Virus record (IMG/VR): IMGVR_UViG_3300031820_000003
Location: 1-64,000 of that record
DNA length: 64,000 nt
Direction: 5' to 3' (one strand)
Source: a virus
Lineage: Duplodnaviria > Caudoviricetes
Numbering within the stretch: the stretch's first letter is position 1; each line of letters starts with the position of its first letter. Below the pieces are notes generated by a model. It was not told the origin of the DNA, ran no database searches, and was given only the letters and a program-made list of their open reading frames with translations. This document shows positions 123 to 47,569 of this stretch, piece by piece. The position numbers and the translations under genes are program-made.

Positions 123-129
123 TGACACA

Positions 130-393
130 GTGAAATCTCTAACGCCGTTTGATCGACAGGTGCTTCTAACGATCGGCCGTAATTGTCGGCAGAACAGCCC
201 CATCAAGGCTCGTCATTGGACTGAGCCCCCGAGAAATATTCCGGGCGTCGAGGACGCGATACGCCATCTTGGCATGCACAAGATGATCCAAAGGAAGGGC
301 GGCCTTTGGTACAAGGTGCAGCCGACCGAGAAGGGATGGCGGCAGATCAAGTCAGAGAAGGAAAGCCGAGAATTCCTGGCGAGTATTGCCTAA
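130..393 (+). CDS. Hypothetical basic protein, possibly winged-helix (last early-strand gene of block 1)
   Basis: 87-aa ORF, GTG start at the position equivalent to the ATG at 47438. Confidence 0.6.
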   Translation: MKSLTPFDRQVLLTIGRNCRQNSPIKARHWTEPPRNIPGVEDAIRHLGMHKMIQRKGGLWYKVQPTEKGWRQIKSEKESREFLASIA

Positions 394-4748: not shown

Positions 4749-7700
4749 TCAATGAATGGCAGCTCCAGGCCACTGACTGGGGTCGCGGTTGAGCGGCTTC
4801 ACGCCCATGCTCTCATTGAAACCGTCCTCGGCCGCATCAAGCAGCCGCCGCACCGCAAACAGATTCTGCAGGAAGATTGCCTGCCGCATCTTGTGGGTAT
4901 CCATGGCTGTCCACGTCCCATGGAACGCATCGTTCACTCCACCGGCGATACCCTCCATCTTGGAATAGGTCGGGCCCAGCAGCTCCGACAGGGCGCTGTT
5001 GGACTGCCGGCGGGATAGCGGATGGTCGGCCCCGATCGCCCGGAACATGTCGGTCGACCCACCGGTGAACTTGGCCTGCATGGAATTGAGTTCGGTGAAC
5101 CAGCCCAGGATGGCCGACCGGGAAATGCCTTCCTTGATCCAGTCCTGGGGCCGCTCGCTGGTCGGCGCACCACTCCATAGGGTGTAGGCGCGGTAGGAGA
5201 TCATGCCCATCCCTAGGCTCGCCACGAGCCCCTGGAGGGTGCGGCCATCCATCTGCTGGAGGTTCGAGATCAGAATCTTCTCATGCGCGGCCGCCACGAA
5301 GCTCTTGTACTGCCCGAGCAGGCTGACCACCGGGCCGGACATCCAAAGGGGCTTCTCCATGCCCGGGGTTAGGACCGCCTGGTCAGCGGACCGCGCCACG
5401 GCCGAGGAGAACACGTCCCGGGCCTGGGTATCCTTCCAGTCCGCGGTGTTGGCCACATGGGTCCCGGTCCCGAACTCCTGGCCGCCACCGTCCTTGTAGG
5501 CTTTCCAGATGCGGGTCGCCATGGTGGCGTCGATCCCCGCCAGGGCCATCCGCTCGGTATCCTTGGCCGTCTGAGTGCTGCCGGCGAAGCGCTCCGCGGT
5601 GCGCAGGAACTCGGCTCCCGCCACCGTACCAGCAACGGTCTTCATGCCGTCGGTCCAGGGCCCATGCAGGTTGACCATCATGGACTTGTCGGCAGCCCAG
5701 GCCAGTGCGCGCTCGAACTTGGACCCCGGCATATGGTTGTCGATGACGTCGCCCCACTGATGCGACAGATGACCAATAGCCGAGTCGATCCCGACCCCCA
5801 TGTCCTTCATGGACTGCCGGGCCGCCGTGCCGAACCCGTCACCCAGCCCAATCATCGATTTCAGGAATGGGGCATAACCGTCCCGGAAGACGTTCATCAG
5901 GCCGTGCCGCCAGACCGCATTGGTGGCGTCGGTCATGCGGTTGAAGACCGAGGTACCCAGATCGGTGATGAGATTGTAGCTGCGGGCCGCGTTGGCAATC
6001 CGGGCTGCATTGGGCTGGGTCTTGGCGAGCTCCCAGCCATAGACGCCGCGGACCCGGTCGCGCGTGGCGGCAAGGTCGCGGACCATGGCCTTGCGCTCCC
6101 GGTCGAGCGCCTGCGCCTGCTTCTCAGTCTTAGCGCCAGCCAGCCGAGCGTCGTACTCCTCGTTGAGCTGCTTGAAGACCTGCTGCATCTCGACATCACC
6201 GAATCGGTCGGTCAGGTGAATGTCAGGCAGCGCGGTCCGCAAATGGGCGGCAATGACGTGCTCGGTGTCCGTGTTGACGAAGTCCCGCACCAGCGAGGTC
6301 GGGATAGCGAAGTCGCGGGCATTGAGCGAGCCGCGGACCTGCTGCTGCTCACCGGGCGGCCCAATGACCGGCCCGCCGCTGGCGATGTCGTAGGGCAGCC
6401 GGCCGTCAGGCGCTGTGTTGATGCGGTTGATGATCTCGGCGGCGCGGCCCTCCAGCTCCTGCCGCGACAGGTCGCGATCGGACTTGAGGATTGCCTTGAC
6501 AGCCCGGTCGACCGAACTGTCGGCGCTTTCCAGTCGGCCAGGCTCGCCCTTGAATTCCCCCGCCGCGATCTTCTCAGCCCGCAGCTGCTCTGCCTTCTCG
6601 CGCGCCTTGAGTGCGGCCTTGGCCTCCTGCGCCGATGTGCCATTCCAGTCCGCAATTTCCTTCTCGATCTTGGCCCGCATGGCCTGAGCGTGATCGGTCT
6701 CCTGGATCAACTGCTGCTCGAGCGTTTCAATCTCGCCTTCCTTGCCAGACGCCTGATCAGCGAGCTGATTGCCGCGGCCGCGAATCTTGGTCTCGAAGAC
6801 TGCCCCGCCGCGGGCATTTTCGATCCGCTTCTTTTCCGCGGTACGCAACGTTTCAGCCCGCTGATAGGCGAACTTGTTGAGGCGCGTAATCTCTTCGGCC
6901 TTGTCCTGCAGGGCTTCCAGCGCATCGGTACGGCCGGATAGCTTGGCCTCGATCTTCGCGATATTCAATTCATGCGACTTGAGCGCTCCGCTATAGACCT
7001 GTAGCCGCTCCTTTGCCGCCGCCTTCAGGCTCTGCTCGCTCTCCAGCCAATCGGTGAAAATGCGCTTGACGTCATTGAACCGCGCCGCGATAGCCGGCTT
7101 GTTCCATAGCCGCGGGAAGAATGACTTGTCCCCCTTGGGCGGCTCGAGCGCCTCGGCCAGCATGGGCTTGCCGTCCGGTCCCATGGTGCGCTGGGCCAGC
7201 CGCATGACCGGGTCGAGCACCTGGGACCGAATTTGCTTTGCAGCCGCAGCCACCTCCGGGACGGCATGCACATCGCCGTCGGTCATGGCCGACGACACCG
7301 CCGTCTTGAAGTCATCGAATGACAGCTTGCCGGGCGCCTGCCCGCGCATGTCCTGGATGGTCGCAGCGGCTGTCGGCAGCTTGCTGTCCTGCAAGCCACG
7401 GTACTTGATGAACTGATCGCGCAGGATTTGGCTGTTCGTCAGCTGCCCCTCATGAGCCTGCATCTTGACCAGCCGGTCGACCGGGATGCCACCGCGCGCC
7501 GTGGTGATGCCCTGGTCGGCCTGGGTGAAGCGCAGCGAAGTCTCGGCCAGATCGCCCATGGCGCGCTTGGCGATCAGCGATGCCGACGAGAACACCCGCA
7601 GCGTCGGCGAGAAGCCCATCAATATCTTGCTGGTGTAGTCGAGCGCACCGCCCACGCCGGGCACCTGCCGCAACGCGTGCATGGCATTCTCGGGCAGTAG

Positions 7701-34907: not shown

Positions 34908-35380
34908 CGGACGACCTTCACCTTGGTCCCGGGATAAGCGGCCTCGACCAGCTTGCGCTTGATCCTGGATAGGGGAGTGTCCTTGCCTTTCACGTCGTCG
35001 AGAGCGCGTCTGACGTGATCTTTCTTGGCGCCAAGGATTTCCCAATAGCGGAAATCCAAGATCACCTTGCAGATGTGCTTGCCGTTGATGGCGATCGGAT
35101 AGGAGGGCTGAATCTCAATGTCGCGGACGCGGCCGGCCCGCTCGAGTAGCTTCAGCCCATCGTAGTATTCGGCTTCACGCTTGCTGGCGAACAGATGGGG
35201 CTTGCCGTTGACTATGCGGGTGCGCTCGGCCTTGCCAGCAACGCTGTTGTCGACGCCGTATTTGCTGCGCGTGTTGCCGCCCTTCTGGCGAGCGGCCATC
35301 ATCTTGCGATACTCCGCGCGGGACAGCGGAGCGCCGAATGGCCGATCAATCATCGACGGTATGTTGCTTCTGTCATTCAT
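34904..35380 (-). CDS. PD-(D/E)xK endonuclease, DUF1064-like
   Basis: SKYG, FASKREAEYY, QPSY, DF.Y, DVKG..T..IKRKL. Confidence 0.8.
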   Translation of the reverse strand: MNDRSNIPSMIDRPFGAPLSRAEYRKMMAARQKGGNTRSKYGVDNSVAGKAERTRIVNGKPHLFASKREAEYYDGLKLLERAGRVRDIEIQPSYPIAINGKHICKVILDFRYWEILGAKKDHVRRALDDVKGKDTPLSRIKRKLVEAAYPGTKVKVVR

Positions 35381-35390
35381 CGGACTGAGG

Positions 35391-35588
35391 TTATTCCCGT
35401 ATATCCAGCGTGGTATTTCCACCCGATTGACGGTCGATTCTCACGCAAGGATAAAACTGCCCCCATGTCGTGTTCAGCAAAACCGCGTCAGTATTGTTGC
35501 CGTTTATATTTTTGTCGCACGACTGACACACGCACTTGTATTCAGACACCAGTTGGCGGATACATTTCCCCCGGGCGCATAAAAACAA
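35391..35588 (-). CDS. Zinc-finger protein
   Basis: C.CQSC...YPC motif. Confidence 0.4.
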   Translation of the reverse strand: MFLCARGKCIRQLVSEYKCVCQSCDKNINGNNTDAVLLNTTWGQFYPCVRIDRQSGGNTTLDIRE

Positions 35589-35623
35589 TCAACAGTCGGG
35601 GGTTGCGTAATGGGTACCGTGAT

Positions 35624-35839
35624 TCACTGGGCTGCCTCGCGCGGCCGCAAAAAAGCGTCCATCGGAACTTCACTCCCAGATACCTCGCTCAACCGCTTCG
35701 CCAAGCCCAAGGACGCTTCCTTGCGGCCGGCGAAGATGTTGCGAAGGTGCCATTCGGAGCAGCCAACCGTAGCGGCCAGGACGGAAACGGTCATTCCCTT
35801 GCCGTTGGCCCAACGTAGCATCGGGTGCAAATCAGACAT
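35624..35839 (-). CDS. cro: Cro-like repressor
   Basis: VSVLAATVGCSEWHLRNI HTH; divergent from cI. Confidence 0.8.
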   Translation of the reverse strand: MSDLHPMLRWANGKGMTVSVLAATVGCSEWHLRNIFAGRKEASLGLAKRLSEVSGSEVPMDAFLRPREAAQ

Positions 35840-35849
35840 GGGGCGGAGT

Positions 35850-35900
35850 ATTCCCACTAGGAATGGCGAAAGTCAACCCGAAATATTCCTCGAAGGAATA
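35850..35900. promoter_or_regulatory. OR-like operators ATTCC-N5-GGAAT x2 with the cro promoter
   Basis: Sites 35850-35864 and 35885-35899; minus-strand TTGACT at 35872-35877. Confidence 0.8.
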
Positions 35901-35933
35901 GGCCGTTTTCAGAATGACTTAGTAGAGTCGGCT

Positions 35934-36239
35934 ATGGCCAAGAAAGCGAAGCCAGAACTCTCTCAAATGCACCTTAAGGACTGGCTCGGATATTTTGAGC
36001 TCGGTCCGACAGCGGCAGCCAAGCACGCTGGATGCACACAGCCGTACATCTCCAATATGATGGCTGGACGCAGGACAAGCGTAAATGTCTTGTATTTGGT
36101 TAAACTTACCGAAGAAATAGGGATCACCGTCAACGATCTCTATCGGCCGGCGCCGACCAAGCTACAGCTCGCCCAGCTGCAGAGCTATTCGCCTCAGGCA
36201 CAGGCTACGATTCTCCAGCGCGCTCGCAAGAAGTCCTGA
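35934..36239 (+). CDS. cI: Short CI-like XRE repressor (no peptidase domain)
   Basis: PTAAAKHAGCTQPYISNM HTH; flanked by matching operators. Confidence 0.75.
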   Translation: MAKKAKPELSQMHLKDWLGYFELGPTAAAKHAGCTQPYISNMMAGRRTSVNVLYLVKLTEEIGITVNDLYRPAPTKLQLAQLQSYSPQAQATILQRARKKS

Positions 36240-36287
36240 CACTCGGCTGACGTCATTTCTGGCCGATATCGTTGCACGGGCTCAACT

Positions 36288-36337
36288 ATTCCTCCTAGGA
36301 ATATTTTGGTTGACAGTAGCCCATTCCTGTGAGAAAT
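36288..36337 (+). promoter_or_regulatory. OL-like operators x2 with a rightward promoter
   Basis: ATTCC-TCCTA-GGAAT 36288-36302, ATTCC-TGTGA-GAAAT 36323-36337, TTGACA 36310-36315 between them. Confidence 0.8.
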
Positions 36338-36468
36338 AGGTCCTCAGAGTGATTTGGAGGACTGCCCATGTACCGCGACCGTCTGTCCGACACTGACGTC
36401 TTCATCACCCTCATATCGGCCTTGGCCTTCCTCGCCTTTGCTGAGATCGCGGTCCTGCGGGTGCTGTC

Positions 36469-36687
36469 GTGACCGCCCGGACCAGGACTTTCGTACCGGC
36501 CGCCCAGCGCCCTACGGAGCTCGCTGACGAGACTTGCGATTGGGCTACTGCCCAGGCAGCCGAGATCATAAGCGACGCCTGGGACTACGCGCACGGGCGC
36601 CAGACCTATGTCCAGGTCAGGTCCGCCGTGGCCCAGCGCCTGCGCATGATCCGCGCCCGCGGCGAAGCGGCTGTGAGGCGGTCATGA
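36469..36687 (+). CDS. Hypothetical early protein
   Basis: 72-aa coupled ORF. Confidence 0.5.
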   Translation: MTARTRTFVPAAQRPTELADETCDWATAQAAEIISDAWDYAHGRQTYVQVRSAVAQRLRMIRARGEAAVRRS

Positions 36688-36866
36688 ACAGCGTCATCCC
36701 GTGCAAGAAAGGCGCCGAATGTAATTGGCCGGCATGTCCTCTCGACTGCCCAGAACGTCCAGGAGCCAACGTCAAAAGTTCTGCGCCATATGGCGATTGG
36801 TGTCGCGATCCTGATCTTTGCGCCGGCAAAGGCTACTGCCCGCGCGATCCAACATGTGGAGATTAG
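36684..36866 (+). CDS. Cys-rich microprotein (60 aa, 8 Cys)
   Basis: MNSVIPC..C..C..C..C..C..C..CGD; coupled start. Confidence 0.5.
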   Translation: MNSVIPCKKGAECNWPACPLDCPERPGANVKSSAPYGDWCRDPDLCAGKGYCPRDPTCGD

Positions 36867-36869
36867 GTC

Positions 36870-37055
36870 ATGAGCCGGCGTTTACCGACATTTTGCACCC
36901 ACGGCGAGTTCGAGCGGGCCTCGGAAGCCGAGCGCCGGGAATGGACAGCGCGGCTGCTGCGCAGGTGGGGTAGCGACGAGGCCCGCAAGCTCGACTTCGA
37001 TTGCCAGTCCGATTTCGACAGAACGGACAGCTCCAGACGATGGCCCGAGTCATGA
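36870..37055 (+). CDS. Hypothetical early protein
   Basis: 61-aa ORF. Confidence 0.5.
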   Translation: MSRRLPTFCTHGEFERASEAERREWTARLLRRWGSDEARKLDFDCQSDFDRTDSSRRWPES

Positions 37056-37255
37056 CCCGACCAATCAACCTTGAACGGCTTCACGAGGCGACGGATCAGC
37101 AGCTGGCTGATGCCTATGCGAGGGCATTGCAGCTTGCACACGATGCTCCGAAGGACATGCCGAATGAAGGCATGGCATCTCCGACATGGGCCGTTCGATC
37201 GCGCGAAGCGTTTCGCATCGGTGACGAGATTGCACGGCGCGAGAAAAACAAATGA
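37052..37255 (+). CDS. Hypothetical early protein
   Basis: Coupled ORF MTRPINLERL. Confidence 0.5.
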   Translation: MTRPINLERLHEATDQQLADAYARALQLAHDAPKDMPNEGMASPTWAVRSREAFRIGDEIARREKNK

Positions 37256-37340
37256 CCTGGATCATCGTAGGACTGATCGCACTACTGTGGTTCGCCGGCG
37301 CATTGGCTGTCTGGAAAATTTGCAGCATGGGGGCGGACTG

Positions 37341-37550
37341 ATGGCGCGCGATTACATCCCGATCGACCAAATTATCAATGCGCTTCGGCAATTCCCAAAG
37401 GGGGCAACCTCTCGTCAACTAGCCGAACACCTCGGCATGAAGCCGCATAGCGTCGGGACTCGGCTCTACAAACAGCACATCTACGGACGCGGTGTCGATC
37501 GCACCGAGAGCGCCGGGCCGCAACACGAATACATCTGGAGGGCTGAATGA
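37341..37550 (+). CDS. Winged-HTH protein
   Basis: GATSRQLAEHLGMKPHSV. Confidence 0.6.
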   Translation: MARDYIPIDQIINALRQFPKGATSRQLAEHLGMKPHSVGTRLYKQHIYGRGVDRTESAGPQHEYIWRAE

Positions 37551-38365
37551 CCCGCACCGCCGTCAAAGACAAGATCGAGACCACACTCGCGCCCGAGGCG
37601 CCGACTGCTCAGCTGCCCGCTGTCGCCGAGCCCGCGCGGCAGGAGCGCAGGCCCCTCATGACACCGAAGACGATCGCGCCTGCGATCTACTCGGGCAAGA
37701 TCGCCAAGGCGGTCATCGCGGTGTCCAAGGAAATCGGCCGCATTCAGAAGGACGGCGAGAACGCATTCCAGCGCTACAAGTACACCCGCTGGGAGGACAT
37801 CAACGAACGCCTGTCGCCTCTGCTAGTCGAGCACGGCCTGATCCTCGTACAGAACGAGTTGAGCCGCGATGTGATCGAGCGCAGCGCCGAGGGCTGCGTG
37901 TTGGCGATCGTCTATCAGTTCATCCTCGTGAGCGAAGACGGCGACGCTTGGCCGCCGGTCGAGTGGACCGCCATTGCGCGCCTGACCGATAAGAAGGGTA
38001 CGCCCGACGACAAGGCCGCCGCCAAGTGCCACACCCAGGCCGAGAAACAGTTCTGCATCAAACAATTCAAAATCAGGACCGACACCTACGAAGACGGCGA
38101 CGCGAGCGAAACCATGTCGCGGGTCAATCCTCGGGCCAAGGAAGTCTACCGCGAGATGGAAGCGCAGATTGACGCCTGTAAGTCCGCGGTCGAGCTCGGT
38201 GCCTGGGGCAAGGACAACAAGGACCGCATCCAAATCTTGCACCCGCAGTGGCAGAAGGAATTGCGCGTCCGCTACAGCGAACGGCTGTCCGTGTTCCAGC
38301 AAGATAACGTCGAGTGGACGGATGAAGGCGTGAACGATCCGAAGACCGGCGAAGTCGTGCAGTGA
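37547..38365 (+). CDS. erf: ERF-family ssDNA annealing recombinase
   Basis: IQKDGENAFQRYKY..EDI..L.PLL.EHGL; DKA..K..T.A.K..F.I.T. Confidence 0.85.
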   Translation: MTRTAVKDKIETTLAPEAPTAQLPAVAEPARQERRPLMTPKTIAPAIYSGKIAKAVIAVSKEIGRIQKDGENAFQRYKYTRWEDINERLSPLLVEHGLILVQNELSRDVIERSAEGCVLAIVYQFILVSEDGDAWPPVEWTAIARLTDKKGTPDDKAAAKCHTQAEKQFCIKQFKIRTDTYEDGDASETMSRVNPRAKEVYREMEAQIDACKSAVELGAWGKDNKDRIQILHPQWQKELRVRYSERLSVFQQDNVEWTDEGVNDPKTGEVVQ

Positions 38366-38474
38366 AGATCGCTGCCGCGCTCATCCTGTTTGTTGTCGTG
38401 TGCTTGGCACTCTGGGGAGCGCGGGAGCATCCGCCCAAGGACTGCATCGGAATTGGCAAGGGTATGGATGAAAG

Positions 38475-38675
38475 GTGCTGGAGATGAAAATGAGCGCAAG
38501 GTCATGGAACTCTCTAGCAGTCGGCTCCGCGAGCATGTTTGGTTATTCAGGAAGTGGGCTTCTCGCGCATTTCTGGTCAGAAGCGCCATCGCTGTGGCTT
38601 TCATTAACCATGTGCGTCATCTGCTTTGCGGGCATAGTTTTTTGTTCAGGCAAAGCACAGGGGTACTGGAGATGA
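38475..38675 (+). CDS. Small membrane protein
   Basis: Hydrophobic WLSLTMCVICFAGIVF. Confidence 0.4.
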   Translation: MLEMKMSARSWNSLAVGSASMFGYSGSGLLAHFWSEAPSLWLSLTMCVICFAGIVFCSGKAQGYWR

Positions 38676-38818
38676 TGGACAGATATGACAAAGATTTTCT
38701 TGAACACATCGCCATGCTTCAGCGCGAGCAAGCGACCCAAACTATCAAGCTGCTCGAGGAAATAAAATTGTTGCTGGCCCAGCTCGTGGCCCGCACGCCG
38801 GATAAGGTCGGGTATTAA
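38672..38818 (+). CDS. Small helical protein
   Basis: MMDRYDKDFLEH..., GGAG RBS. Confidence 0.5.
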   Translation: MMDRYDKDFLEHIAMLQREQATQTIKLLEEIKLLLAQLVARTPDKVGY

Positions 38819-38829
38819 ACAATGGGAAA

Positions 38830-38909
38830 CGTTGCCTTGGCGCAGACACTCGGATGGGTCTGCAAGCGCAACGGGGGCGAGCCGCCATCTGACGTACCGG
38901 CTTTTGCCC
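38830..38909 (+). ncRNA. Tandem stem-loops separated by one G (put-like antiterminator candidate)
   Basis: CGTTGC..GCAGAC/GTCTGC..GCAACG, then GGGCGAGCCG/CGGCTTTTGCCC. Confidence 0.3.
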
Positions 38910-38951
38910 TACCAAACTAGTCACAACAAGTGAGACAACGGGAGAACTCAG

Positions 38952-39272
38952 GTGTTCAATCTAAGCATTTATAGATTCGGCGTCCAACGCTCAGAAGTTT
39001 ATATGTTTCTGAACAAGGATAAGGCCGAGATCGCCTACCTGAAAATCAAGGCAGCATTGGCGCAATACAAGCCATGGGGCAACGATAAGGATGCGATCGT
39101 TTCGTTTATTGGGCATGACGATCTGGAGGTAACCTATCGTCTTGAACACATTTCGTCCGTGTCGCTTGGCGATACCACTGTGGACGAACCTATGCAGATC
39201 GAGCACGCGAAATACATTGGTCGTCTCAACGCCGCCGCTGAAAGCGAATGCAAGAAAAGTAAACCCGAATAG
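38952..39272 (+). CDS. Hypothetical protein
   Basis: 106 aa, GGAG RBS. Confidence 0.6.
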   Translation: MFNLSIYRFGVQRSEVYMFLNKDKAEIAYLKIKAALAQYKPWGNDKDAIVSFIGHDDLEVTYRLEHISSVSLGDTTVDEPMQIEHAKYIGRLNAAAESECKKSKPE

Positions 39273-39314
39273 TGTAACGGGAATTGTGTCTACGGGAAAC
39301 TAGGAGGGACGATC

Positions 39315-39527
39315 ATGAGCTACCGAGTTGTTTATGGCGAGACGATACCGGCATGGGAGAAGATTTTCCCGACGCTTCGCGAGGCCAAGGCATTCGCCAA
39401 AGAGCACGAGGGTTTTGGCGACATAATCTTCAGCATCAACAAGGTCGTTCCCGGTCAAGGGCCGCAGTCGTTAGTGGCGGCGATCGAAGCTGGCGAGGTC
39501 GAGGGATTTTGTCGCGCAGCTAAGTAA
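39315..39527 (+). CDS. Hypothetical protein
   Basis: 70 aa, GGAGG RBS. Confidence 0.6.
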   Translation: MSYRVVYGETIPAWEKIFPTLREAKAFAKEHEGFGDIIFSINKVVPGQGPQSLVAAIEAGEVEGFCRAAK

Positions 39528-40105
39528 TGCGGAATGAGACAACAGAAATGAAGCCGTTAGCAGCACACATCTGGAATCGGGAAGAACATGAGCACTATGT
39601 CGAGCCCGAGTGGTGTTCGCAGCGGCTCTTTCAGGTCGAGCCGTTTGTGCAGGAGATTTGGGACCCGGCTTGTGGGTTTGGACGTATCTGTGAGTCAGCA
39701 CGGGCGGCAGGACATGCCGTTCATGGCACGGATATCATGCATCGCGGTTACTACGCGCAAACGGCTACATGCGATTTTCTAAGCTCGTCTGAGCGGTGGA
39801 CCAATATCGTCACAAATCCTCCATTCGACCTCTTCGCTGGCTTTGTCCGGCATGCACTTCAGCTTGCCAGGGGCAAGGTGGCGATGATCTGGCTGGTTCG
39901 CCGCTTACCGGCCGCGCGCTGGCTTAAGGAAACACCCCTGCAACGCATCTGGTGGTTAACGCCTCGTCCCTCAATGCCGCCTGGACACACAATCACAGCC
40001 GGTGAGAAACCCGGTGGGGGGACACAGGATTTTTGCTGGTTGGTGTGGGAGCAGGGACGACCCTACGTAGGCGCAACCGACTGGCTGCATCGCGATAATT
40101 CATGA
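39527..40105 (+). CDS. Orphan amino-DNA methyltransferase (m6A/m4C type)
   Basis: SAM-binding WDPACGFG and catalytic NPPF. Confidence 0.85.
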   Translation: MRNETTEMKPLAAHIWNREEHEHYVEPEWCSQRLFQVEPFVQEIWDPACGFGRICESARAAGHAVHGTDIMHRGYYAQTATCDFLSSSERWTNIVTNPPFDLFAGFVRHALQLARGKVAMIWLVRRLPAARWLKETPLQRIWWLTPRPSMPPGHTITAGEKPGGGTQDFCWLVWEQGRPYVGATDWLHRDNS

Positions 40106-40560
40106 TTGATGAGACAATGGAAACCGCGATGCTCTTTCGTAATACGGGGACATTGCCCTTACGGAGCGAAAATCGCGTCTCCGTTCTTGAGCTTTGCAAC
40201 CGAGCAGCCGAAGCCCTCAAGGCTGTCGGCTTCGAGCGGGTACAGGTTTCGATGAAGAGCGAGGCCACCTACTACCGTCTGCCGGGACGACATGGGCTTC
40301 TGCGTATAGCCACCCACAAGTCAAAGCGGACGCCGATCGGCATGGATTACGTTGCTGCTACGTTGACGTTCAACGGCGGCAAGAGAGACCGCGATACCAT
40401 GATTATGAAGGATAGTCGCTTCGAGGGAATGCTTTGGGTTGCGGTCGGGCAATACATCTTGCGATCAGGTGCGCCGCATGAGTCCAGGTATACCGGCAAA
40501 CGCGGAACCTGGGAATCCCATTGTGTTCCTTCTGCTGAATCTACAGGAACGAAGCCATGA
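40102..40560 (+). CDS. Hypothetical protein
   Basis: 152-aa coupled ORF. Confidence 0.55.
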   Translation: MIDETMETAMLFRNTGTLPLRSENRVSVLELCNRAAEALKAVGFERVQVSMKSEATYYRLPGRHGLLRIATHKSKRTPIGMDYVAATLTFNGGKRDRDTMIMKDSRFEGMLWVAVGQYILRSGAPHESRYTGKRGTWESHCVPSAESTGTKP

Positions 40561-40781
40561 TCCCGAAGCTGACATCGAAGCAGAAAAAGCACATCAAGGA
40601 CCGGGGCGCTCAATTCGATAACGCGCTGGCGCGGGCAACGATGTGCGTCCGCTCCTGCGGCAAGCTGATCGGGATGGAAAAGGTGCGAGCTCCGATCGCC
40701 TGGAGAGCAGCCCTTGCCGCAACGGGATATCCGTTTGAGACGGAAGGCTTTGTCATGGGAGAACGAAGCCGGCCCGGTTGA
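40557..40781 (+). CDS. Hypothetical protein
   Basis: 74-aa coupled ORF. Confidence 0.5.
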   Translation: MIPKLTSKQKKHIKDRGAQFDNALARATMCVRSCGKLIGMEKVRAPIAWRAALAATGYPFETEGFVMGERSRPG

Positions 40782-41056
40782 TCAGGAAATCCAAGACATC
40801 GCCAGCAAGCTCTATGACGACGCTGTAAGAGCCGCGAGACAAACATGACTCTCCCCTACCCGCCGCCCTGGATGGACAGGGCACGCTGACGAGCAGGAGC
40901 CATGACGATGGATATGGTCGGCCTAATTGTCTTCCACCTACCGAGCAGGCTCAGACTTTGGGTTGCTCGCAAGATCGGTAAGCCGATGGCCGGCGGTGGA
41001 TGGATGATAGGGACGACAGTGGCGATCTATGATCCATCCGTCGAGGACTGAGACAA

Positions 41057-41332
41057 ATGACCGACTCGGTAATTGAGCCTCTGAAGGAAAAGGCGCCACC
41101 TCAAAAGAGGGACACGCTCTTTGTCACCGACAAGGAGCTTATCGAGCGGCTCGGCATCCCGAAGCAAGACGCATGGCCCGTTCTCAAGATGCTAGACGAG
41201 AATAAGAAATCTGGTTTTCCACAGAAGTCCAAGCTTTGGGGTGGACGGCGCTACTGGCCGGCGGTCAAGGCCTATTTCGATCGGACAAATGGTCTTACGG
41301 TTGAGACTCCACAAGAACGGAGGGCCTCGTGA
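41057..41332 (+). CDS. xis: Excisionase-like winged-helix protein
   Basis: VTDKELIERLGI, FP....GGRRYWPAVKAYFD; overlaps the int start. Confidence 0.7.
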   Translation: MTDSVIEPLKEKAPPQKRDTLFVTDKELIERLGIPKQDAWPVLKMLDENKKSGFPQKSKLWGGRRYWPAVKAYFDRTNGLTVETPQERRAS

Positions 41333-42558
41333 CCGAAAGACCGCCTCGACCTGAAATCCCGAATGCTCCTGGCCTGCGCTGGTATCCCCGCGTGATCGGC
41401 TGGGAAGCCCGCTGGCGCGCCCGCCCCGACCTGGTGCAGGCCGGCTTCCGCCCGAAGAGTTTTGGACTCTGGCGCGGTGCAGAGCCCACAGAGCAAGAGA
41501 TTGCCTGGATGCAGGACAGGTGTGAGCGCCTGCAGGCCGACATGCTCGTTTGGGGCCGCGATGGTCTCCCGCAGCCAGAGACGGCGTTTGACGGCACGGT
41601 CAGGTCTCTCGTGCAATGCTACGAAAGCGATCCGGACTCCAGCTTTCACAAGTTACGCTTCCAGTCAAAGCGCAACAGCCGCTATCGATGCCGCGTCCTG
41701 ATCCGTGACTATGGCGATCAGGCCGTAGCTGATATCGACGCGCGGCTGATCAAGCGCTGGCATGCGGGTTGGACGGTCGACGGGAAGATCGCTAGCGGTC
41801 ACATGATGGTCACGATGCTGCGGACCTTGATGGGGTTCGGCGCGACCTTCTTCAAGAAGGATCAGGGCGGGGCTGATTGCGCGACCGTGCGCACCCTGCT
41901 CTCCATGATGAAGTTCCCTAACATCAAGCCGCGCAATGTCTGCCTGACGGCCGAGCACGCCATCGCGATCCGCGCCGAGGCGCACAAGCAGGGTATGCCA
42001 TCGATCGCGCTCGCCCAGGCTATCCAGTTCGAGGTGGCCTTGAGGCAGAAGGACGTGATTGGGGAATGGGTGCCCACCAGCGAGCCGGGTGTGTCAGACG
42101 TTATCGCAGGCAACGACAAATGGCTACGCGGTATCCGCTGGAACGAAATCGATGCGAACCTGATCCTGCGCCACACGACCAGCAAACGCGGCAAGGACAT
42201 CGAATTCAATCTGCGCTTGGCGCCGATGGTCATGGAGGAACTCGCCCGCATTGGCGATCTGCCCAAGAGCGGGCCGGTGATCATCTACGAGCGCACCGGA
42301 GTTCCCTACTACGCTCATCAGTTCGGCAAGGAGTGGAAGATCATCGCGCGGGGCGCTGGCATCCCGGATGGCGTCCACAACATGGACTCGCGGGCGGGCG
42401 CCATTACGGAGGCCACCGAGGCCGGCGTCCCGCTCGAGCACGTCCAGCACCTCGCCACACACTCGAACATCACGACCACACAGGGCTACTCGCGGGGCAA
42501 GACGGAGAAAGTCGAGAGCACTGCGCGGGCTCGGGTGGCGCACCGGAACAAGAAGTGA
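41329..42558 (+). CDS. int: Tyrosine integrase
   Basis: LRQKD (R), TSKRG (K), MDSRAGAIT (variant HxLR), ATHS..TT.GY catalytic motifs. Confidence 0.92.
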   Translation: MTERPPRPEIPNAPGLRWYPRVIGWEARWRARPDLVQAGFRPKSFGLWRGAEPTEQEIAWMQDRCERLQADMLVWGRDGLPQPETAFDGTVRSLVQCYESDPDSSFHKLRFQSKRNSRYRCRVLIRDYGDQAVADIDARLIKRWHAGWTVDGKIASGHMMVTMLRTLMGFGATFFKKDQGGADCATVRTLLSMMKFPNIKPRNVCLTAEHAIAIRAEAHKQGMPSIALAQAIQFEVALRQKDVIGEWVPTSEPGVSDVIAGNDKWLRGIRWNEIDANLILRHTTSKRGKDIEFNLRLAPMVMEELARIGDLPKSGPVIIYERTGVPYYAHQFGKEWKIIARGAGIPDGVHNMDSRAGAITEATEAGVPLEHVQHLATHSNITTTQGYSRGKTEKVESTARARVAHRNKK

Positions 42559-42618
42559 ACCTGTGCACCACGAACGTTAAGCGAAAGTGCATAGGACACG
42601 GATGGGGCACTGCTCAAG

Positions 42619-42691
42619 CTAAGTCTTTGATTTTGTTGATGCGTAAATTCATGTGTCATTAACAAAGCGGTCAATGAAATCAATGGGCTAG
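42619..42691. other. attP-like region with inverted arm-type sites
   Basis: CTAAGTCTTTGATTT (42619-42633) and AAATCAATGGGCTAG (42677-42691) flank an AT-rich core just after int. Confidence 0.5.
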
Positions 42692-42722
42692 TGCACCATC
42701 GAAGAACGGCAGGGAAGAATAC

Positions 42723-42880
42723 GGACGTGTGGGGAGTACGGAAAGCGAGGATGGCCCAGGGCGGAGAACAGGTCTGCCCGGTCGCCGGATGCGCCAACTG
42801 GAAAGCCGAGATCAAAGCTTTGCGGATTGCCTGTGAAACCCGCACGGCGAGTGGAGGTGCAATTCCTCCCACGTCCACCA
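42723..42880 (+). ncRNA. 158-nt tRNA-like RNA (expanded cloverleaf, 3' CCA)
   Basis: Perfect 7-bp acceptor GGACGTG/CACGTCC + A-CCA; T arm GGAGG-TGCAATT-CCTCC; internal stems GGGCGGA/TCTGCCC and TCGCCG/CGGCGA. Confidence 0.75.
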
Positions 42881-42918
42881 ATTAGGAGATCGGACGGGAC
42901 GGTAGAGGAGCTATAGGG

Positions 42919-43143
42919 ATGAGCGATCCCATTGATCGACTGAAGGAAGAGGTGAGTTTCCGAGAAGCCGATCCAAATAATTACGATGAGCAGGTAACGG
43001 CTGATCTTCGATATCTCATAGATCGGGTGGCCGAGCTGGAGCAGGCCATCTACGAAGTCGTGAACCACGGCGATGCCAGCGGCGATCCGGAGCTGATGGC
43101 CAAGCTCAAGAGACTGACCCCGGAAGCCGGGTGGACGGATTAG
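42919..43143 (+). CDS. Hypothetical protein
   Basis: 74 aa. Confidence 0.55.
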   Translation: MSDPIDRLKEEVSFREADPNNYDEQVTADLRYLIDRVAELEQAIYEVVNHGDASGDPELMAKLKRLTPEAGWTD

Positions 43144-43153
43144 GAGGGTGAGA

Positions 43154-43393
43154 ATGAAGTGCCCAAAGTGCGACGAGGACTGCGAGCGCGATAGCGTCGA
43201 TGTGGGTGTGGGCGTGATCCACGGTCCATATGGATGCCCGAGTTGTGCTTGGTCTGAGGATTCCGAATACGACCTATCGGACGGCAAAGACCCTGTGGAT
43301 GAGAAGGGTGGCGCAATCGATCAGTATGGTGGCTATCATCCGCCCGGATCGTCTATGGCCCTAGCTTACCGGTTGGCGCGAAATCACGAGTAG
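43154..43393 (+). CDS. Zinc-ribbon protein
   Basis: CPKC...CPSC; GGAGG RBS. Confidence 0.65.
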   Translation: MKCPKCDEDCERDSVDVGVGVIHGPYGCPSCAWSEDSEYDLSDGKDPVDEKGGAIDQYGGYHPPGSSMALAYRLARNHE

Positions 43394-43417
43394 TCATCGG
43401 TCGAGAGACAAGAGGAA

Positions 43418-43579
43418 TCATCTATTGGCCCGTTCCCGCCTCTTCAGTTCCCGCTCGACCGCCTGCCGGATGAATTCGGCCTGGCCCTCCCCCTCCTTGA
43501 GGGCGGCTTCGATCCTGGCGAGTGTCCCGGCAGGGAACCGCCCGAGGGCGGCTTCCTCGTTTATGCGTTTCCGGCCCAT
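43418..43579 (-). CDS. Ribbon-helix-helix regulator
   Basis: RFPAGTLARIEAAL...AEFIRQAVERELKRR. Confidence 0.75.
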   Translation of the reverse strand: MGRKRINEEAALGRFPAGTLARIEAALKEGEGQAEFIRQAVERELKRRERANR

Positions 43580-43597
43580 CTTTTTTCTCCGCAAAAG

Positions 43598-43637
43598 TGA
43601 TATCACCTATTGACAGGCCAAAAATAGGTGATATCAT
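43598..43637. promoter_or_regulatory. Perfect 14-bp inverted repeat overlapping a sigma70-type promoter
   Basis: TGATATCACCTATT / AATAGGTGATATCA; TTGACA 43610-43615, TATCAT 43632-43637. Confidence 0.8.
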
Positions 43638-43664
43638 GTTCATTGTCAACAACGGAGAATGGCC

Positions 43665-43826
43665 ATGCTGATCGTCACCTGGAAGGAAAACGGAATGCGG
43701 CTTCGAGTTCTCGGTGAGAAGAAAGGGCGCCAAGACGAGCTTCGGATTGTGGTTCAGAAGGAAACAGCCCAAGGCATTCATGGGCAATTCTCTCTACGTC
43801 CGGAGGAAATCGAGTGGCCGATCTGA
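43665..43826 (+). CDS. Hypothetical 53-aa protein (first gene after the promoter)
   Basis: GGAG RBS, MLIVTWKENG... Confidence 0.5.
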   Translation: MLIVTWKENGMRLRVLGEKKGRQDELRIVVQKETAQGIHGQFSLRPEEIEWPI

Positions 43827-43982
43827 TTGTTCAGGAGCCCTTACGGGATCGAATAGGCCGGGTTCTCTATGAAGAGCCCGGCCTTGACCGGAACTGGTAC
43901 GAACTCAGCGAAGAGCGCCGAGAGCCGTGGCGCAAAGATGCTGATCGAGTCATCGCGATTCTATCTGAGAGAGGAGAATAAG

Positions 43983-44414
43983 ATGGCGGAGACAAGCGAA
44001 GATTGGGCGATCAGTCCCCAACATGCAGCTCAACTGGCTTATGGCTTGCTTTGGCTAGATCCCTTACCCTCGATGCCTTCAAAGGCCGCCAGGAAGCAGT
44101 TGCTCCACGCTCTTTCACACGAAGAACGGAAAGCCGGGATTGGCTGGGCGATGAAAATCGCGGCCGACATTCGAGAAAATATTGGTAGCGCGAGCGATAA
44201 TGCGCTTTTGCGCAAGGCCAAAGAAATGCGGCATGCCATCGATATGATTGAAGGTGCTCTAATGCGATGGCCCGAATTAATGGAGTTGCCTAAGAAATGG
44301 GGCGATCCGCGCCACCATAGAGAACTCGGTTTGCGCGATATCAAGGGCAACTGCGGCCAGCTCTATGACGTTTACGACGCCATGATGGAAATGCAATCGG
44401 ATCATCAATTCTGA
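43983..44414 (+). CDS. Hypothetical protein
   Basis: AGGAG RBS, MAETSED. Confidence 0.55.
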   Translation: MAETSEDWAISPQHAAQLAYGLLWLDPLPSMPSKAARKQLLHALSHEERKAGIGWAMKIAADIRENIGSASDNALLRKAKEMRHAIDMIEGALMRWPELMELPKKWGDPRHHRELGLRDIKGNCGQLYDVYDAMMEMQSDHQF

Positions 44415-44468
44415 CGAATTCGAATCGTTGGCATAAAGTCATCAGTAGACGCACAATAGGAGCGAACC

Positions 44469-44759
44469 ATGGTTGATTTCACGAGACCCGGACGCATGAT
44501 ATCTGGTTCAAAAACTGAGCCCAAGGGTCATGTGTGCGTCTTTAACGCCAATGTGTGCTCGAAGTCGCGCGGCAAGTTTTGGTTCGGGGATATCGACATC
44601 ACCGCCGACGCGGATGACTTGCGCAAGCTGGCCGTCAAGGAAGGCGAAGAGATTTACATTCTCCGCGAGATGGACGGACGATTCATGAATGAAGCGGAGC
44701 CGCTGCTTCACAAGTCCGTCGCGCGCGTCACTCCGGACGGCACAATAACGGTCGGATGA
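44469..44759 (+). CDS. Hypothetical protein
   Basis: AGGAG RBS; MISGSK..VFNAN..WFGDID. Confidence 0.65.
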   Translation: MVDFTRPGRMISGSKTEPKGHVCVFNANVCSKSRGKFWFGDIDITADADDLRKLAVKEGEEIYILREMDGRFMNEAEPLLHKSVARVTPDGTITVG

Positions 44760-44763
44760 GTAA

Positions 44764-44991
44764 TTGTCTAACATCACATCGGACAACGGGATGCGCATCG
44801 GAGAACTGATCGCGGTGGCTAGGGAGTTAAAAGGATGGACGCTTCGGGACCTCGAAAAGAAAACCGGAATTTCCAATGCGCTTCTATCGCAGATCGAGAC
44901 CGGTCGCATCAAGAGCCCAAGCTGGCGCAACGTGGTCGCAATCGCGAAGGCGCTCAATCTGAAACTGGATCGACTGGCGGCATGCGACTGA
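44764..44991 (+). CDS. XRE HTH regulator
   Basis: WTLRDLEKKTGISNALLSQIETG. Confidence 0.85.
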   Translation: MSNITSDNGMRIGELIAVARELKGWTLRDLEKKTGISNALLSQIETGRIKSPSWRNVVAIAKALNLKLDRLAACD

Positions 44992-45022
44992 CCCATATCA
45001 AAAGTGACAAGGAGAACGGCTG

Positions 45023-45313
45023 ATGCGCGTGAACGTCTACACAGAGGAATTGCTGACGGTCGGGAACAACCCAGTGGCGGCTGAAATCGTCGAAACAGAA
45101 TATATAAGCTCGCGAACCGGACAGCCCATGAAGAACTACGGACTGCGGATTTACCTCAAGTCGCATCCCGACCTGCATTACGTTCCGGGGCGCGACGACG
45201 ATCGATCCGCAATCACGTTCTGGTGCGGGCCAACGCGCCGTGCTGCCGTAGAGTTCTGGCGCTTCGTTGGTGCCATGGCGTTCGATGTCGCGGAGCGGAA
45301 TCACGATGACTGA
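45023..45313 (+). CDS. Hypothetical protein
   Basis: AGGAG RBS, 96 aa. Confidence 0.6.
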   Translation: MRVNVYTEELLTVGNNPVAAEIVETEYISSRTGQPMKNYGLRIYLKSHPDLHYVPGRDDDRSAITFWCGPTRRAAVEFWRFVGAMAFDVAERNHDD

Positions 45314-45578
45314 CACGACGAGAATCGAAATCGCGATCTATATCGACGACCAGGAATATGCGATGCGCGTGTGGCCTGCGGTGCCACGGGTCGGCGATGA
45401 GATCATGGTGCGGAGAGTAGAGCCCCGCAATGAGACGCACAACATGGTCAATCGCCCTCGTGTCCTGGACGAGCATGCCATCGCGGTTGTCGAAACGGTC
45501 TGCTGGGGCACGAGCGACAAGAGCCGAGATGGTCCATGGAGCGAACTGCGGGTCTCCATGTTCTGCAAATGGCGCTGA
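45306..45578 (+). CDS. Hypothetical protein
   Basis: Overlapping start; VPRVGD motif. Confidence 0.55.
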   Translation: MTDTTRIEIAIYIDDQEYAMRVWPAVPRVGDEIMVRRVEPRNETHNMVNRPRVLDEHAIAVVETVCWGTSDKSRDGPWSELRVSMFCKWR

Positions 45579-45603
45579 GTCACGGTGAGAGAGAGGTCGA
45601 GAA

Positions 45604-45843
45604 ATGAACGTCACGCCTGAAATGGTCGAAGCGGCGGCGAAGGCTATCTATGACGCCGAGCCGTACTACGAACAAGGCGAGTACGTTGACGGTTTTCCTG
45701 TTTCACCCGGAGGGAACTTGACATGGAATCAGGCCAAGGCGCGAGACGCCGAATTTTCTGGCGATGGCTTGTTTATCCCAATCACTCAGTTTCCATATCG
45801 AGCCGCACGAGCAGCGCTCGAAGCCGCATTGTCTAATACCTGA
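45604..45843 (+). CDS. Hypothetical protein
   Basis: VTPEMVEAAAKAI..AARAALEAAL pattern. Confidence 0.6.
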   Translation: MNVTPEMVEAAAKAIYDAEPYYEQGEYVDGFPVSPGGNLTWNQAKARDAEFSGDGLFIPITQFPYRAARAALEAALSNT

Positions 45844-45855
45844 GAACACAACGCC

Positions 45856-46188
45856 ATGGTCACGCCGCAAGAACTTCGAGACCGGGCCGAACTGCTCCGT
45901 CAATGGGGCAAGTTTGAGCTGGGCATGACCCCTCCAGCAGCGCTCGACTACGACGACACAATGCAGAAGCTTGATGCAGCAGCGGCAGAGATCGAACGGC
46001 TGCAGGCTCTGCTCACAGAGGTGTCAATCAGACTACACGCATGGGAAGGGGGTGAGCCCTCTGCAATGATGTGCGGAGATTTGGCCAAAGAAATCGACGA
46101 GGCGCTGAATAATGAGCAGTTACACAATAGCGGCGCATCTAGCTCAATAGATGCGCCACCGCCGCGCAATGAGGGCGTGGAGCCATAA
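45856..46188 (+). CDS. Hypothetical protein
   Basis: 110 aa. Confidence 0.55.
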   Translation: MVTPQELRDRAELLRQWGKFELGMTPPAALDYDDTMQKLDAAAAEIERLQALLTEVSIRLHAWEGGEPSAMMCGDLAKEIDEALNNEQLHNSGASSSIDAPPPRNEGVEP

Positions 46189-46285
46189 GCGAAACGAGAG
46201 GCGGCGCGAGGCGCGGGCACTGGCGCGTAGTGCTCACGGCTATCGCCGGTTCTGACGCGCGGCTATCAGTAGATAGGCAGGCAAG

Positions 46286-46459
46286 ATGAACCGATGCGAA
46301 AAATGTGGGTCAACCACGGAACACGTGTGCTCCTGGGTTTGTGTGGATATTTGCCCGAAATGCGATGGGTGGCCTGATTCAACTTGCCCTACGGATCGAT
46401 TCTGTCAGCCTGATGCGGCATCAAAACAGGAGATTGATCATGGCAACGAAGTTGATTGA
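46286..46459 (+). CDS. Cys-rich microprotein (57 aa)
   Basis: MNRCEKCG..C..C..CPKC..C..C. Confidence 0.4.
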   Translation: MNRCEKCGSTTEHVCSWVCVDICPKCDGWPDSTCPTDRFCQPDAASKQEIDHGNEVD

Positions 46460-46637
46460 TGTTCAGCCCGGAGACGCTCTGATTGCCGATGCTGGATTTA
46501 CGTGCGTGAAGCCGGGAAGGGTTTCCGTGAAGAAGAGTGACAATGGCCTCTACTTTGACTGCAGCGAGGGCCGGCATTACCTCGACGGGCAGGTCAATGA
46601 CGAAGGCAGCCTTGTAGGATTGAGGCGCATCGACTAG
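46440..46637 (+). CDS. Hypothetical protein
   Basis: AGGAG RBS, MATKLIDV. Confidence 0.6.
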   Translation: MATKLIDVQPGDALIADAGFTCVKPGRVSVKKSDNGLYFDCSEGRHYLDGQVNDEGSLVGLRRID

Positions 46638-46650
46638 CGCGCGGCTATAG

Positions 46651-46857
46651 ATGAACACCGTCCGCAAAACCCGCCTGCAGCGGAAAATGACCCAGCGCGA
46701 TCTTGCCGGAAAGGTCGGCACGAGCCAGCAGCAGATCCAGCGCATCGAGAACGGGCAGACGCCTACGCTCGAGCTGGCGTGCAGGATTTCCAGCGCACTC
46801 AAGGCTGAACTGACAGAGTTGTTCCCGATTGAGACGCGCGCACTCAATAGGAAATAG
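46651..46857 (+). CDS. XRE HTH regulator
   Basis: MTQRDLAGKVGTSQQQIQRIENG. Confidence 0.85.
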   Translation: MNTVRKTRLQRKMTQRDLAGKVGTSQQQIQRIENGQTPTLELACRISSALKAELTELFPIETRALNRK

Positions 46858-46862
46858 ATGAT

Positions 46863-47210
46863 ATGTGCTCGTGTCCTGAGCGGCCGAAATGCGAATGGGA
46901 CTGGTGCGATGAGCCTGCAGACTGGTCCGTTTACCAACCTCAATGGGGATCACGCCCCCAGCGCTTCAAGCTCATGTGCGATGAGCACTACGGATGGTAC
47001 TGCGAGAAAATTCCCGGCATCGACCGTCCGGACGGAGCGGATGAATACTGGCGCTCATCACTCGCCGATTCGCTGCGCTTTGGGATGATCAAGACGGCAT
47101 TCGAGGACCGGCAGAATGGGAGAAAGCCGCTAGCGATCGAGGATACGGGCTACAAGCGAAAATACACCTTCGAACAGTTGAAGCAGATAGTCCAATCGAG
47201 ACATAGATGA
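46863..47210 (+). CDS. Cys-containing hypothetical protein
   Basis: CEWDWC..MCDEH motif. Confidence 0.55.
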   Translation: MCSCPERPKCEWDWCDEPADWSVYQPQWGSRPQRFKLMCDEHYGWYCEKIPGIDRPDGADEYWRSSLADSLRFGMIKTAFEDRQNGRKPLAIEDTGYKRKYTFEQLKQIVQSRHR

Positions 47211-47419
47211 TGAGTAACCGAGAAAAGATTACCATGCTCCCGGGCAGTCAGCCCGACCTCAAGATCATGATGGCCATGGTGTGCGAGGAATATCCTGGCG
47301 TGAGCCGTGGTATCGTGATCGTGTTCGATGAGAACGGCGACATGCACACGAATTTCCGGTGCAACGATCAGGAGATGGCCTTAGCTGGCGCTCGGTTGCT
47401 TCACCTTGCAAACACTTGA
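47207..47419 (+). CDS. Hypothetical protein whose 3' half forms the direct repeat
   Basis: 70 aa; last 111 nt identical to window 1-111. Confidence 0.65.
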   Translation: MMSNREKITMLPGSQPDLKIMMAMVCEEYPGVSRGIVIVFDENGDMHTNFRCNDQEMALAGARLLHLANT

Positions 47420-47430
47420 TTCACAAGAGA
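47309..47430 (+). repeat. Direct repeat copy 2; block 1/block 2 junction
   Basis: Identical to 1-122. Confidence 0.97.
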
Positions 47431-47437
47431 CGACACA

Positions 47438-47569
47438 ATGAGACTCAATGCAATCCTAACGTGGCTAGCCCTGCTGACCACATGGATTTGGTTGCTAAAT
47501 GTCGCTATTGACGCAAAATTTTCGCGTGAGGTCATCAATATTTTAGCTGGGCACGCTGACGCGAAGTAA
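47438..47569 (+). CDS. 43-aa single-TM microprotein
   Basis: MRLNAILTWLALLTTWIWLLNVAIDAK... Confidence 0.45.
   Translation: MRLNAILTWLALLTTWIWLLNVAIDAKFSREVINILAGHADAK

Follow-up and report, generated by a model that had tools for sequence, protein, structure and literature searches.

What is the 158-nt sequence that lies between the integrase gene and the first early gene of a soil phage, and that begins and ends like a transfer RNA around an interior that does not resemble one? The sequence occupies positions 42723..42880 on the + strand of the window, the 64,000-nt stretch of DNA analysed here. The window is part of an IMG/VR record of 86,867 bp of soil metagenome origin, and its numbering is that of record positions 1-64,000. 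The element could be a working RNA, the remains of an integration event, a structure within a longer message, a mobile repeat or a short coding sequence whose likeness to a tRNA is fortuitous. These readings make different claims about the surroundings of the element, its ends, its fold and its distribution, which are considered in turn below.

Genomic setting

Self-comparison and the ENA assembly of the same sample show that the record is a path across two sister phage genomes, not a single genome. Unit A extends from 1 to ~47.3 kb and unit B from ~42.9 to 86.7 kb, with an early region of 4.5 kb (about 42888-47441) common to both. Within the record, window positions 1-133 match 47309-47441, and positions 34914-43014 match record positions 78950-86867; the ENA assembly does not merge the genomes, and its contigs of 43,047 bp and 4,543 bp overlap by 141 bp. 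The depth in one sequencing run is 22.5 for the A form and 38 for the B form. The element sits among genes that all lie on the + strand, with an ERF recombinase, a methyltransferase-like gene and a tyrosine integrase upstream, and small early genes and a Cro/CI-type regulator downstream.

The tyrosine integrase of unit A (409 aa, 41329..42558, +; Pfam PF00589, E = 7e-11) is 85% identical to that of unit B in protein sequence and 81% identical in DNA, and its relatives in IMG/VR and JGI reach an identity of at most 58-60%. It is followed by an AT-rich region (42559..42696), ~94% identical between A and B, in which GTGCACCA is directly repeated at 42563 and 42691 and inverted repeats occur at 42627-39 / 42671-83. 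This region is likely to be the attP site. At window positions 42645-42660, in the middle of this conserved region, lies a near-palindrome, TTCATGTGTCATTAA, whose phage B counterpart, TTCATGTGTCATGAA, is perfectly palindromic; the near-palindrome is a candidate protein-binding site. On the far side of the element, a shared leader with a GGAG ribosome-binding site and the first early gene (74 aa, ATG at 42919) span 42888..43143 on the + strand, are 98.5% identical between A and B, and form the beginning of the 4.5-kb contig common to the two phages.

Between these conserved flanks, the two phages carry different sequence. A contig of the B form joins 42696 to 42883 with 314 different letters in between, which delimits an A-specific cassette of 186 nt (42697..42882, +), and alignment with BLAST and MAFFT places the cassette boundaries at ~42700-42725 and ~42877-42880. 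The corresponding slot of phage B (L002:3427-3772, record 86427-86772) holds an orphan ORF of 92 aa (L002:3460-3738) with a signal-peptide-like N-terminus. Copies of one 34-nt ribosome-binding leader stand on both flanks of this ORF, as if it had been inserted via recombination at the leader. A weak likeness to the same leader and to the start of the B ORF is seen in the 26 nt that precede the element and perhaps also in its initial 30 nt. Phage B thus lacks the 158-nt element despite its 85% identical integrase and ~94% identical attP-like region, and has another ORF in its place; because of this, the element is taken to be accessory cargo of a variable slot and not the integration site, and the closely related integrase of phage B does without it.

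Further observations touch on this slot and on the integrase family. The B ORF contains GAGGTGAAACCTCCCAC (record 86544-86561), which is similar to the phage A sequence GAGGTGCAATTCCTCCCAC (window 42853-42873), made up of the T arm and the beginning of the acceptor strand. The local alignment has p ~0.04 against shuffles, and the likeness could be due to chance or could be a trace of common ancestry of both cassettes. In a complete relative, with direct terminal repeats and an integrase that is 47% identical, the equivalent slot is occupied by a canonical tRNA-Gly(TCC) gene (L043:4951-5027). The order in that genome is int, an AT-rich repeat region, a 148-aa ORF and the tRNA-Gly gene, which ends 21 nt before the first early gene. 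In a phage whose integrase is 51% identical, an intergenic gap 1.4 kb upstream of int contains a tRNA-3′-end-like piece (L123:500-559), in which a T arm whose loop, TTCGATC, is canonical accompanies an acceptor strand and CCA. ARAGORN and Rfam both find no tRNA at this piece, which is possibly an attP core or another expanded element.

The tRNA-like ends of the element

The limits of the element were set by direct reading, and the same span on the + strand has the lowest folding energy. The 5′ acceptor strand, GGACGTG (42723..42729, +), is followed by T8 at 42730 and forms seven of seven Watson-Crick pairs with 42870-42876. The T arm, GGAGG-TGCAATT-CCTCC (42853..42869, +), has a 5-bp stem and a 7-nt loop and directly abuts the 3′ acceptor strand CACGTCC, which, with the discriminator A and an encoded CCA, is read directly at 42870..42880 (+). 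The third acceptor pair is A3:U70, and GG occupies positions 18-19 of the element. The T arm has U54, C56, R57, A58 and the G53:C61 pair, together with G55, a variant that is also present in real tRNAs. The original prediction had named the acceptor stem, the discriminator A, the CCA, the T arm and the A3:U70 pair, as well as a 7-bp hairpin with the loop GAACAGG that lacks U33; direct reading of the + strand confirms the terminal features at these coordinates and the hairpin at 42759-42779. Since the aligned place in phage B reads ACCGAAA, part of the element's CCA may belong to the flank that the two phages share.

The combination of these features was evaluated with a pattern scan for a 7-bp acceptor stem, a 5-bp T stem, a T.C.A.. 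loop and NCCA, with acceptor strands 40-450 nt apart. On both strands of the 86.9-kb record, the scan finds the element's site only. It gives no match in 40 Markov-shuffled records, and in 794 kb of related loci it returns two true tRNAs and one tRNA-3′-end-like site. The terminal pattern of the element is real and uncommon. Rarity alone is no proof, because the element was picked from a very large scan.

Although rare, the same T arm turns up seven times in IMG/VR and 185,579 GTDB species genomes, five of these in real tRNAs (Arg-CCT, Arg-ACG, Ile-GAT and two phage tRNAs). A 94-kb viral contig (L003:5998-6200) presents a tRNA-Tyr gene followed by a 50-nt mini tRNA-like element at 6075-6124, which has a 7-bp acceptor stem, a linker of 15 nt, a T arm identical to that of the phage A element, and ACCA. 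A second cloverleaf-like sequence, not called by ARAGORN, comes after the mini element, and this region may be a cluster of non-canonical tRNA look-alikes.

Integration target or relic

The original prediction had named a regenerated integration target as one possibility, with a 3′ end that might be recognised as attB in host genomes. A search of 185,579 GTDB species genomes for the T arm followed by N7 and ACCA gave four matches, none with the element's acceptor. With no tRNA that combines the matching T arm and acceptor in these genomes, and with a sister phage that lacks the element, the suggestion of a regenerated target is not borne out.

A related explanation takes the T arm, 3′ acceptor strand and CCA as the attP-type remnant of a copied host tRNA 3′ end, brought in with another integration module, and the upstream GGACGTG complement as fortuitous; no functional product would be made. 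Fragments of tRNAs are common beside integrases, and tRNA genes are targets of this integrase family, with a tRNA-Pro directly upstream of int in L105 and a tRNA-Phe at the provirus end in L085. The piece in L123, which resembles a tRNA 3′ end where no tRNA is detectable, would fit the same explanation. By our calculation, the chance of a perfect 7-mer complement within 450 nt upstream is ~0.04, and a random-like interior, as described below, is what a relic would predict. Several observations speak against such an origin. No tRNA with the element's T arm and acceptor occurs in the 185,579 species genomes, and the fragment is missing from phage B, whose integrase is 85% identical and whose attP-like region is conserved; it therefore is not the working core. 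With int first and the fragment after it on one strand, int would come to lie at the end remote from the restored tRNA, an arrangement that is unusual among tRNA-integrating elements. Moreover, 12 of 12 perfect pairs are unexpected for a decaying relic. We consider a relic unlikely on balance.

Folding of the element and its interior

The whole element folds at -67.6 kcal/mol on the + strand (z = -2.4 to -2.7), compared with -53.4 kcal/mol on the - strand (z = +0.1), and in sliding-window folding the exact span 42723-42880 alone stands out. Positions 8-130 folded alone are no better than shuffles (z = -0.01), so the stability of the whole stems from its terminal helix. In the minimum-energy fold, GGGGAGU (9-15) pairs with AUUCCUC (140-146) and displaces the T arm, for which the ensemble probability is 0.003. 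TRNA-like folds, in which the T arm is kept, are 4.6-10 kcal/mol worse than the minimum-energy fold. The interior had originally been described as an architecture of its own, including an arm closed by TCGCCG/CGGCGA. This description did not hold up, given the shuffle-like energy of positions 8-130 and a TCGCCG/CGGCGA stem that the folding program does not choose and that costs ~3 kcal/mol when forced.

Two hairpins in the interior are of interest with respect to an anticodon arm. The first, GGGCGGA / TCTGCCC with the loop GAACAGG (42759..42779, +), is a 7-bp hairpin with base-pair probabilities of 0.98-1.0, and it is not an anticodon loop because it has no U33. The second, CTGTG-AAACCCG-CACGG (42831..42847, +), is anticodon-arm-like, came from an ARAGORN deletion scan and stands exactly 5 nt before the T arm; its geometry is canonical, but its loop has A33 and C37. 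The deletion scan is not significant, since calls are also made in 25 of 60 interior shuffles. The 20 default-threshold tRNA calls that it yields after removal of ~80 nt were rejected, as 7 of the 60 interior shuffles give at least 20. An internal tandem duplication, which would have made the element two fused tRNAs, was likewise rejected (alignment score 19; shuffles averaged 17.9, and 184 of 500 scored as high).

A fold in which the terminal helix alone exceeds random expectation could also belong to a cis-acting mRNA structure, the helix (7 bp + 7 bp) serving as a processing or stability element on a read-through int transcript. The succession of int, an attP-like region and a structured element on one strand resembles the int-attP-sib arrangement of phage lambda, in which sib is located on the other side of attP from int and loses its link to int once the phage integrates. 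The restriction of above-random stability to this helix and to the + strand would suit such a role, as would the lack of a promoter of the element's own. Set against this are a helix of only ~15 irregular base pairs, short for RNase III, and the lack of a counterpart in phage B despite its similar integrase and attP-like region; the T-loop-like hairpin and the CCA would also be left unexplained. A cis-acting structure accordingly strikes us as rather improbable.

Relation to tRNA, tmRNA and YrlA RNAs

ARAGORN at default settings, applied to the window, a sub-region and the rest of the record, reports no tRNA or tmRNA, and Rfam at gathering scores gives no match for the element, RF00005 included. 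The absence of a full canonical match had been anticipated in the original prediction, and its placement of the sequence outside both the tRNA and tmRNA classes agrees with these empty searches and with the A3:U70 pair. When Rfam matches at E up to 10 are admitted, the sole match is to the permuted tmRNA RF04321 (16.9 bits vs a cut-off of 47), and it is restricted to the T arm, the 3′ acceptor strand and the CCA. Rfam gives neither a ribozyme match nor a match to RF02553 (YrlA) on the element. With introns allowed and thresholds lowered, ARAGORN reports precisely this element as a tRNA-Arg with a 71-nt intron, a candidate that we rejected. A comparable setting (-i0,150 -ps85, introns to 150 nt) makes 1078 calls in 882 kb, and for this reason low-threshold calls carry no weight.

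Individual features give the same picture. The acceptor stem with 7 of 7 pairs, A73 and the encoded 3′ CCA are those of a tRNA, as is the T arm with U54, C56 and A58, though thermodynamic folding disfavours this arm. There is no D arm; GG is found at 18-19, but a D stem is missing and ~100 nt intervene. Nor is there an anticodon arm with U33 and a purine at 37, the candidate loops being GAACAGG and AAACCCG. With respect to tmRNA, the alanine identity pair G3:U70 is replaced by A3:U70, and a tag frame with a stop and pseudoknots is lacking, as two frames are fully open and the third ends in ...FADCL*, which is un-tag-like. A search of the record's genome found no tmRNA. With respect to YrlA, the acceptor is open and the record has no TROVE/Ro60 gene, and genes for a CCA-adding enzyme and RtcB are likewise missing from the record. 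The element is neither a canonical tRNA, nor a tmRNA, nor a YrlA RNA.

Coding potential across the element

The example of phage B raises the question of whether the phage A cassette, too, is a small protein gene, or else a spacer, and its resemblance to a tRNA a matter of chance. An ORF of 44 codons (42751..42885, +), with ATG at 42751 and TAG at 42883-85, or of 64 codons if begun from GTG at 42691, is open across the whole element, and its TAG aligns with the stop of the B cassette ORF. The codon-usage score of this spanning ORF is +0.09 per codon, with p = 0.03 against shuffles and 0.09 over three frames. This value falls within the coding range: it corresponds to the 21st percentile of in-frame windows, is reached by only 3.5% of off-frame windows and equals or exceeds the values obtained for the B ORF and for a neighbouring 81-aa gene. 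The lack of excess structure in the interior and the weakly leader-like left end are also in keeping with a chance resemblance.

Other properties of the frame are less gene-like. Its GC content by codon position is flat (0.56/0.62/0.62), where real genes here have a GC2 of 0.35-0.50, and its ribosome-binding site is poorly spaced. The ORF is absent from the ENA gene calls and from the protein collection, in which the B ORF is present, and it has no PHROG family, no word-sharing homologue and no Atlas look-alike. Its language-model recognition score is low. Two HMMER hits among 1.84 billion representatives were dismissed as repeat-protein artefacts, with scores summed over 9-11 weak stretches. 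A chance origin must, in addition, account for a tRNA pattern that has no match in 7 Mb of shuffles. A spacer or small gene with a fortuitous tRNA-like outline is, in our assessment, a serious contender that is nevertheless doubtful.

Searches for homologues

Covariation would require relatives, and homologues of the element were sought by sequence, by structure and by context. No homologue was found by blastn against phages. The T arm pattern disclosed no second copy of the element in 2.9 million viral contigs and in genome contigs, and 160 integrase-related loci from IMG/VR and JGI contained none by blastn, by a structural scan or by a covariance model, R1, that was built from the element. 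R1 was applied to 938 kb of loci, to 50 related viral records in full and to 151 genomes from the GTDB family of the best integrase-bearing genome, and it detected no homologue in any of them. The model scores genuine tRNAs end to end at 16-24 bits, which bespeaks the tRNA character of the element's ends. Its best match outside tRNAs, in L032, was rejected as lying inside a 633-aa ORF.

Searches by context gave corresponding results. The attP and leader patterns led to no further locus with the element in IMG/VR, and a homologue hunt by way of the neighbouring 74-aa protein produced no relative of it. By SRA k-mers, the stretch occurs in a single listed run, which is of soil DNA and is probably its source; no RNA run with the stretch is listed. 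The contigs of this soil DNA run give no cover on 42712-42879 and no variants. Within the record there is no second copy of the element; a 15-nt exact match at 60710 was attributed to chance because its flanks are unrelated.

These searches also bear on the idea of a miniature inverted-repeat transposable element (MITE) beside attP, of which the acceptor stem would be the terminal inverted repeat. A 13-nt terminal inverted repeat, 85% complementary, can be drawn between 42723-35 and 42864-76, and ~160 bp is a typical size for a MITE. The ends of the element have no target-site duplication, and searches of the record, of 2.9 million viral contigs, of the sampled genomes and of other sequencing runs brought up no further copy. 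Stability confined to one strand would, furthermore, not be predicted for a repeat that acts at the DNA level. We regard a MITE as very improbable.

A possible tRNA-derived RNA as phage cargo

The explanation that we favour, tentatively, is that the element is a tRNA-derived, non-decoding RNA, a tRNA mimic, carried by phage A as accessory cargo. Such an RNA would keep only the top half of a tRNA, with the 7-bp acceptor stem stacked on the 5-bp T arm, the discriminator A and the encoded CCA, while ~120 nt of other sequence would replace the D and anticodon arms, so that it could not read codons. No + strand promoter or terminator of the element's own was found, and the element would therefore be transcribed from the + strand together with its neighbours or, in a lysogen, possibly by host read-through across attL. 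Bacterial RNase P and the tRNA 3′-end enzymes need no more of a substrate than the acceptor/T-arm minihelix with RCCA. These enzymes would excise the RNA at 42722/42723 and at the CCA, and the product could imitate a tRNA, binding proteins that recognise the acceptor end or diverting them. Alternatively, the element might act as a processing signal that splits the int message from the early message.

Several findings count in favour of a tRNA mimic. The acceptor, T arm and ACCA are exact and are accompanied by U8 and by GG at 18-19, a pattern with no match in 40 shuffles, and the stability of the fold is specific to the + strand and to the exact span. The T arm is shared with real tRNAs, and the R1 model scores genuine tRNAs end to end. 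The element lies in an intergenic slot that has different cargo in the sister phage and a tRNA-Gly in a relative, and the spanning ORF is without a credible homologue, has a flat GC profile and is uncalled as a gene. Other findings count against a mimic. Comparative support extends to 0 base pairs, with no homologue anywhere searched; the interior is random-like, the minimum-energy fold destroys the T arm, and the + strand offers no promoter or terminator. The left end is leader-like, the ORF shares the TAG of phage B and has a coding-like codon score, and rare coincidences are to be expected in a scan as large as the one from which the element was picked.

A more specific proposal is that the element is a working member of an undescribed kind of phage RNA built on a tRNA chassis, which would be expressed from the prophage end, carry a payload of ~120 nt, be excised by RNase P and serve as a decoy or sensor. 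Its targets would be proteins of the host or of rival phages that recognise the acceptor end, such as nucleases, CCA-modifying toxins or synthetases. We hold this proposal to be improbable as it stands.

If real, a tRNA mimic at this locus would represent a temperate, prophage-end example of a phage RNA that uses a tRNA frame without an anticodon. It would also mean that the variable moron slot beside attP is open to either kind of cargo, a secreted protein in phage B or a tRNA mimic in phage A, and this would hint at a role in the lysogen. The element, a single, unconserved sequence with a random-looking interior, is a modest lead and not an established new RNA.

Comparison with known systems

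The element shares with attP sites that contain the 3′ end of a host tRNA its place beside a tyrosine integrase and its T arm, 3′ acceptor strand and CCA. It differs from them in also having the 5′ acceptor strand, in the absence of a matching tRNA from the searched genomes and in its absence from the sister phage.

Phage T4 makes RNAC and RNAD alongside its tRNAs. These small phage RNAs (species 1 and 2) are described as being "of yet unknown functions" (PMC9697503). RNAC and RNAD are encoded in the tRNA cluster of a lytic phage and have been detected experimentally, whereas the present element is solitary and belongs to a temperate phage; the two are likened by description only. YrlA and other Y RNAs are non-decoding RNAs with a tRNA-like module and are substrates of RNase P and of CCA addition (Chen et al. 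2014, PMC4201824). In YrlA (RF02553), the acceptor stem-loop is closed, the two ends of the RNA are located in the Ro-binding stem, the D and T arms are conserved, and the genes lie beside Ro60. In contrast, the element has an open acceptor with CCA and no D arm, and its record has no TROVE/Ro60 gene.

The tRNA-like domain of tmRNA (RF04321, RF01849), including its two-piece alphaproteobacterial form, is similar in combining an acceptor, a T arm and ACCA with a replaced anticodon arm, and the 3′ strand of the element, CACGUCC, is one base off the RF04321 consensus CAcCUCC. The element differs from tmRNA in its A3:U70 pair, in having neither a tag frame with a stop nor pseudoknots, and in being under half the length. 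Canonical tRNAs (RF00005) are 72-95 nt long, whereas the element has 158 nt, no D arm, no usable anticodon loop and G55. With canonical tRNA genes of bacteria and phages, among them those next to int/attP in temperate phages, it has in common the acceptor, U8, the T stem and loop, the discriminator A and the CCA, as well as a position on the + strand in the slot that a tRNA-Gly gene occupies in a relative.
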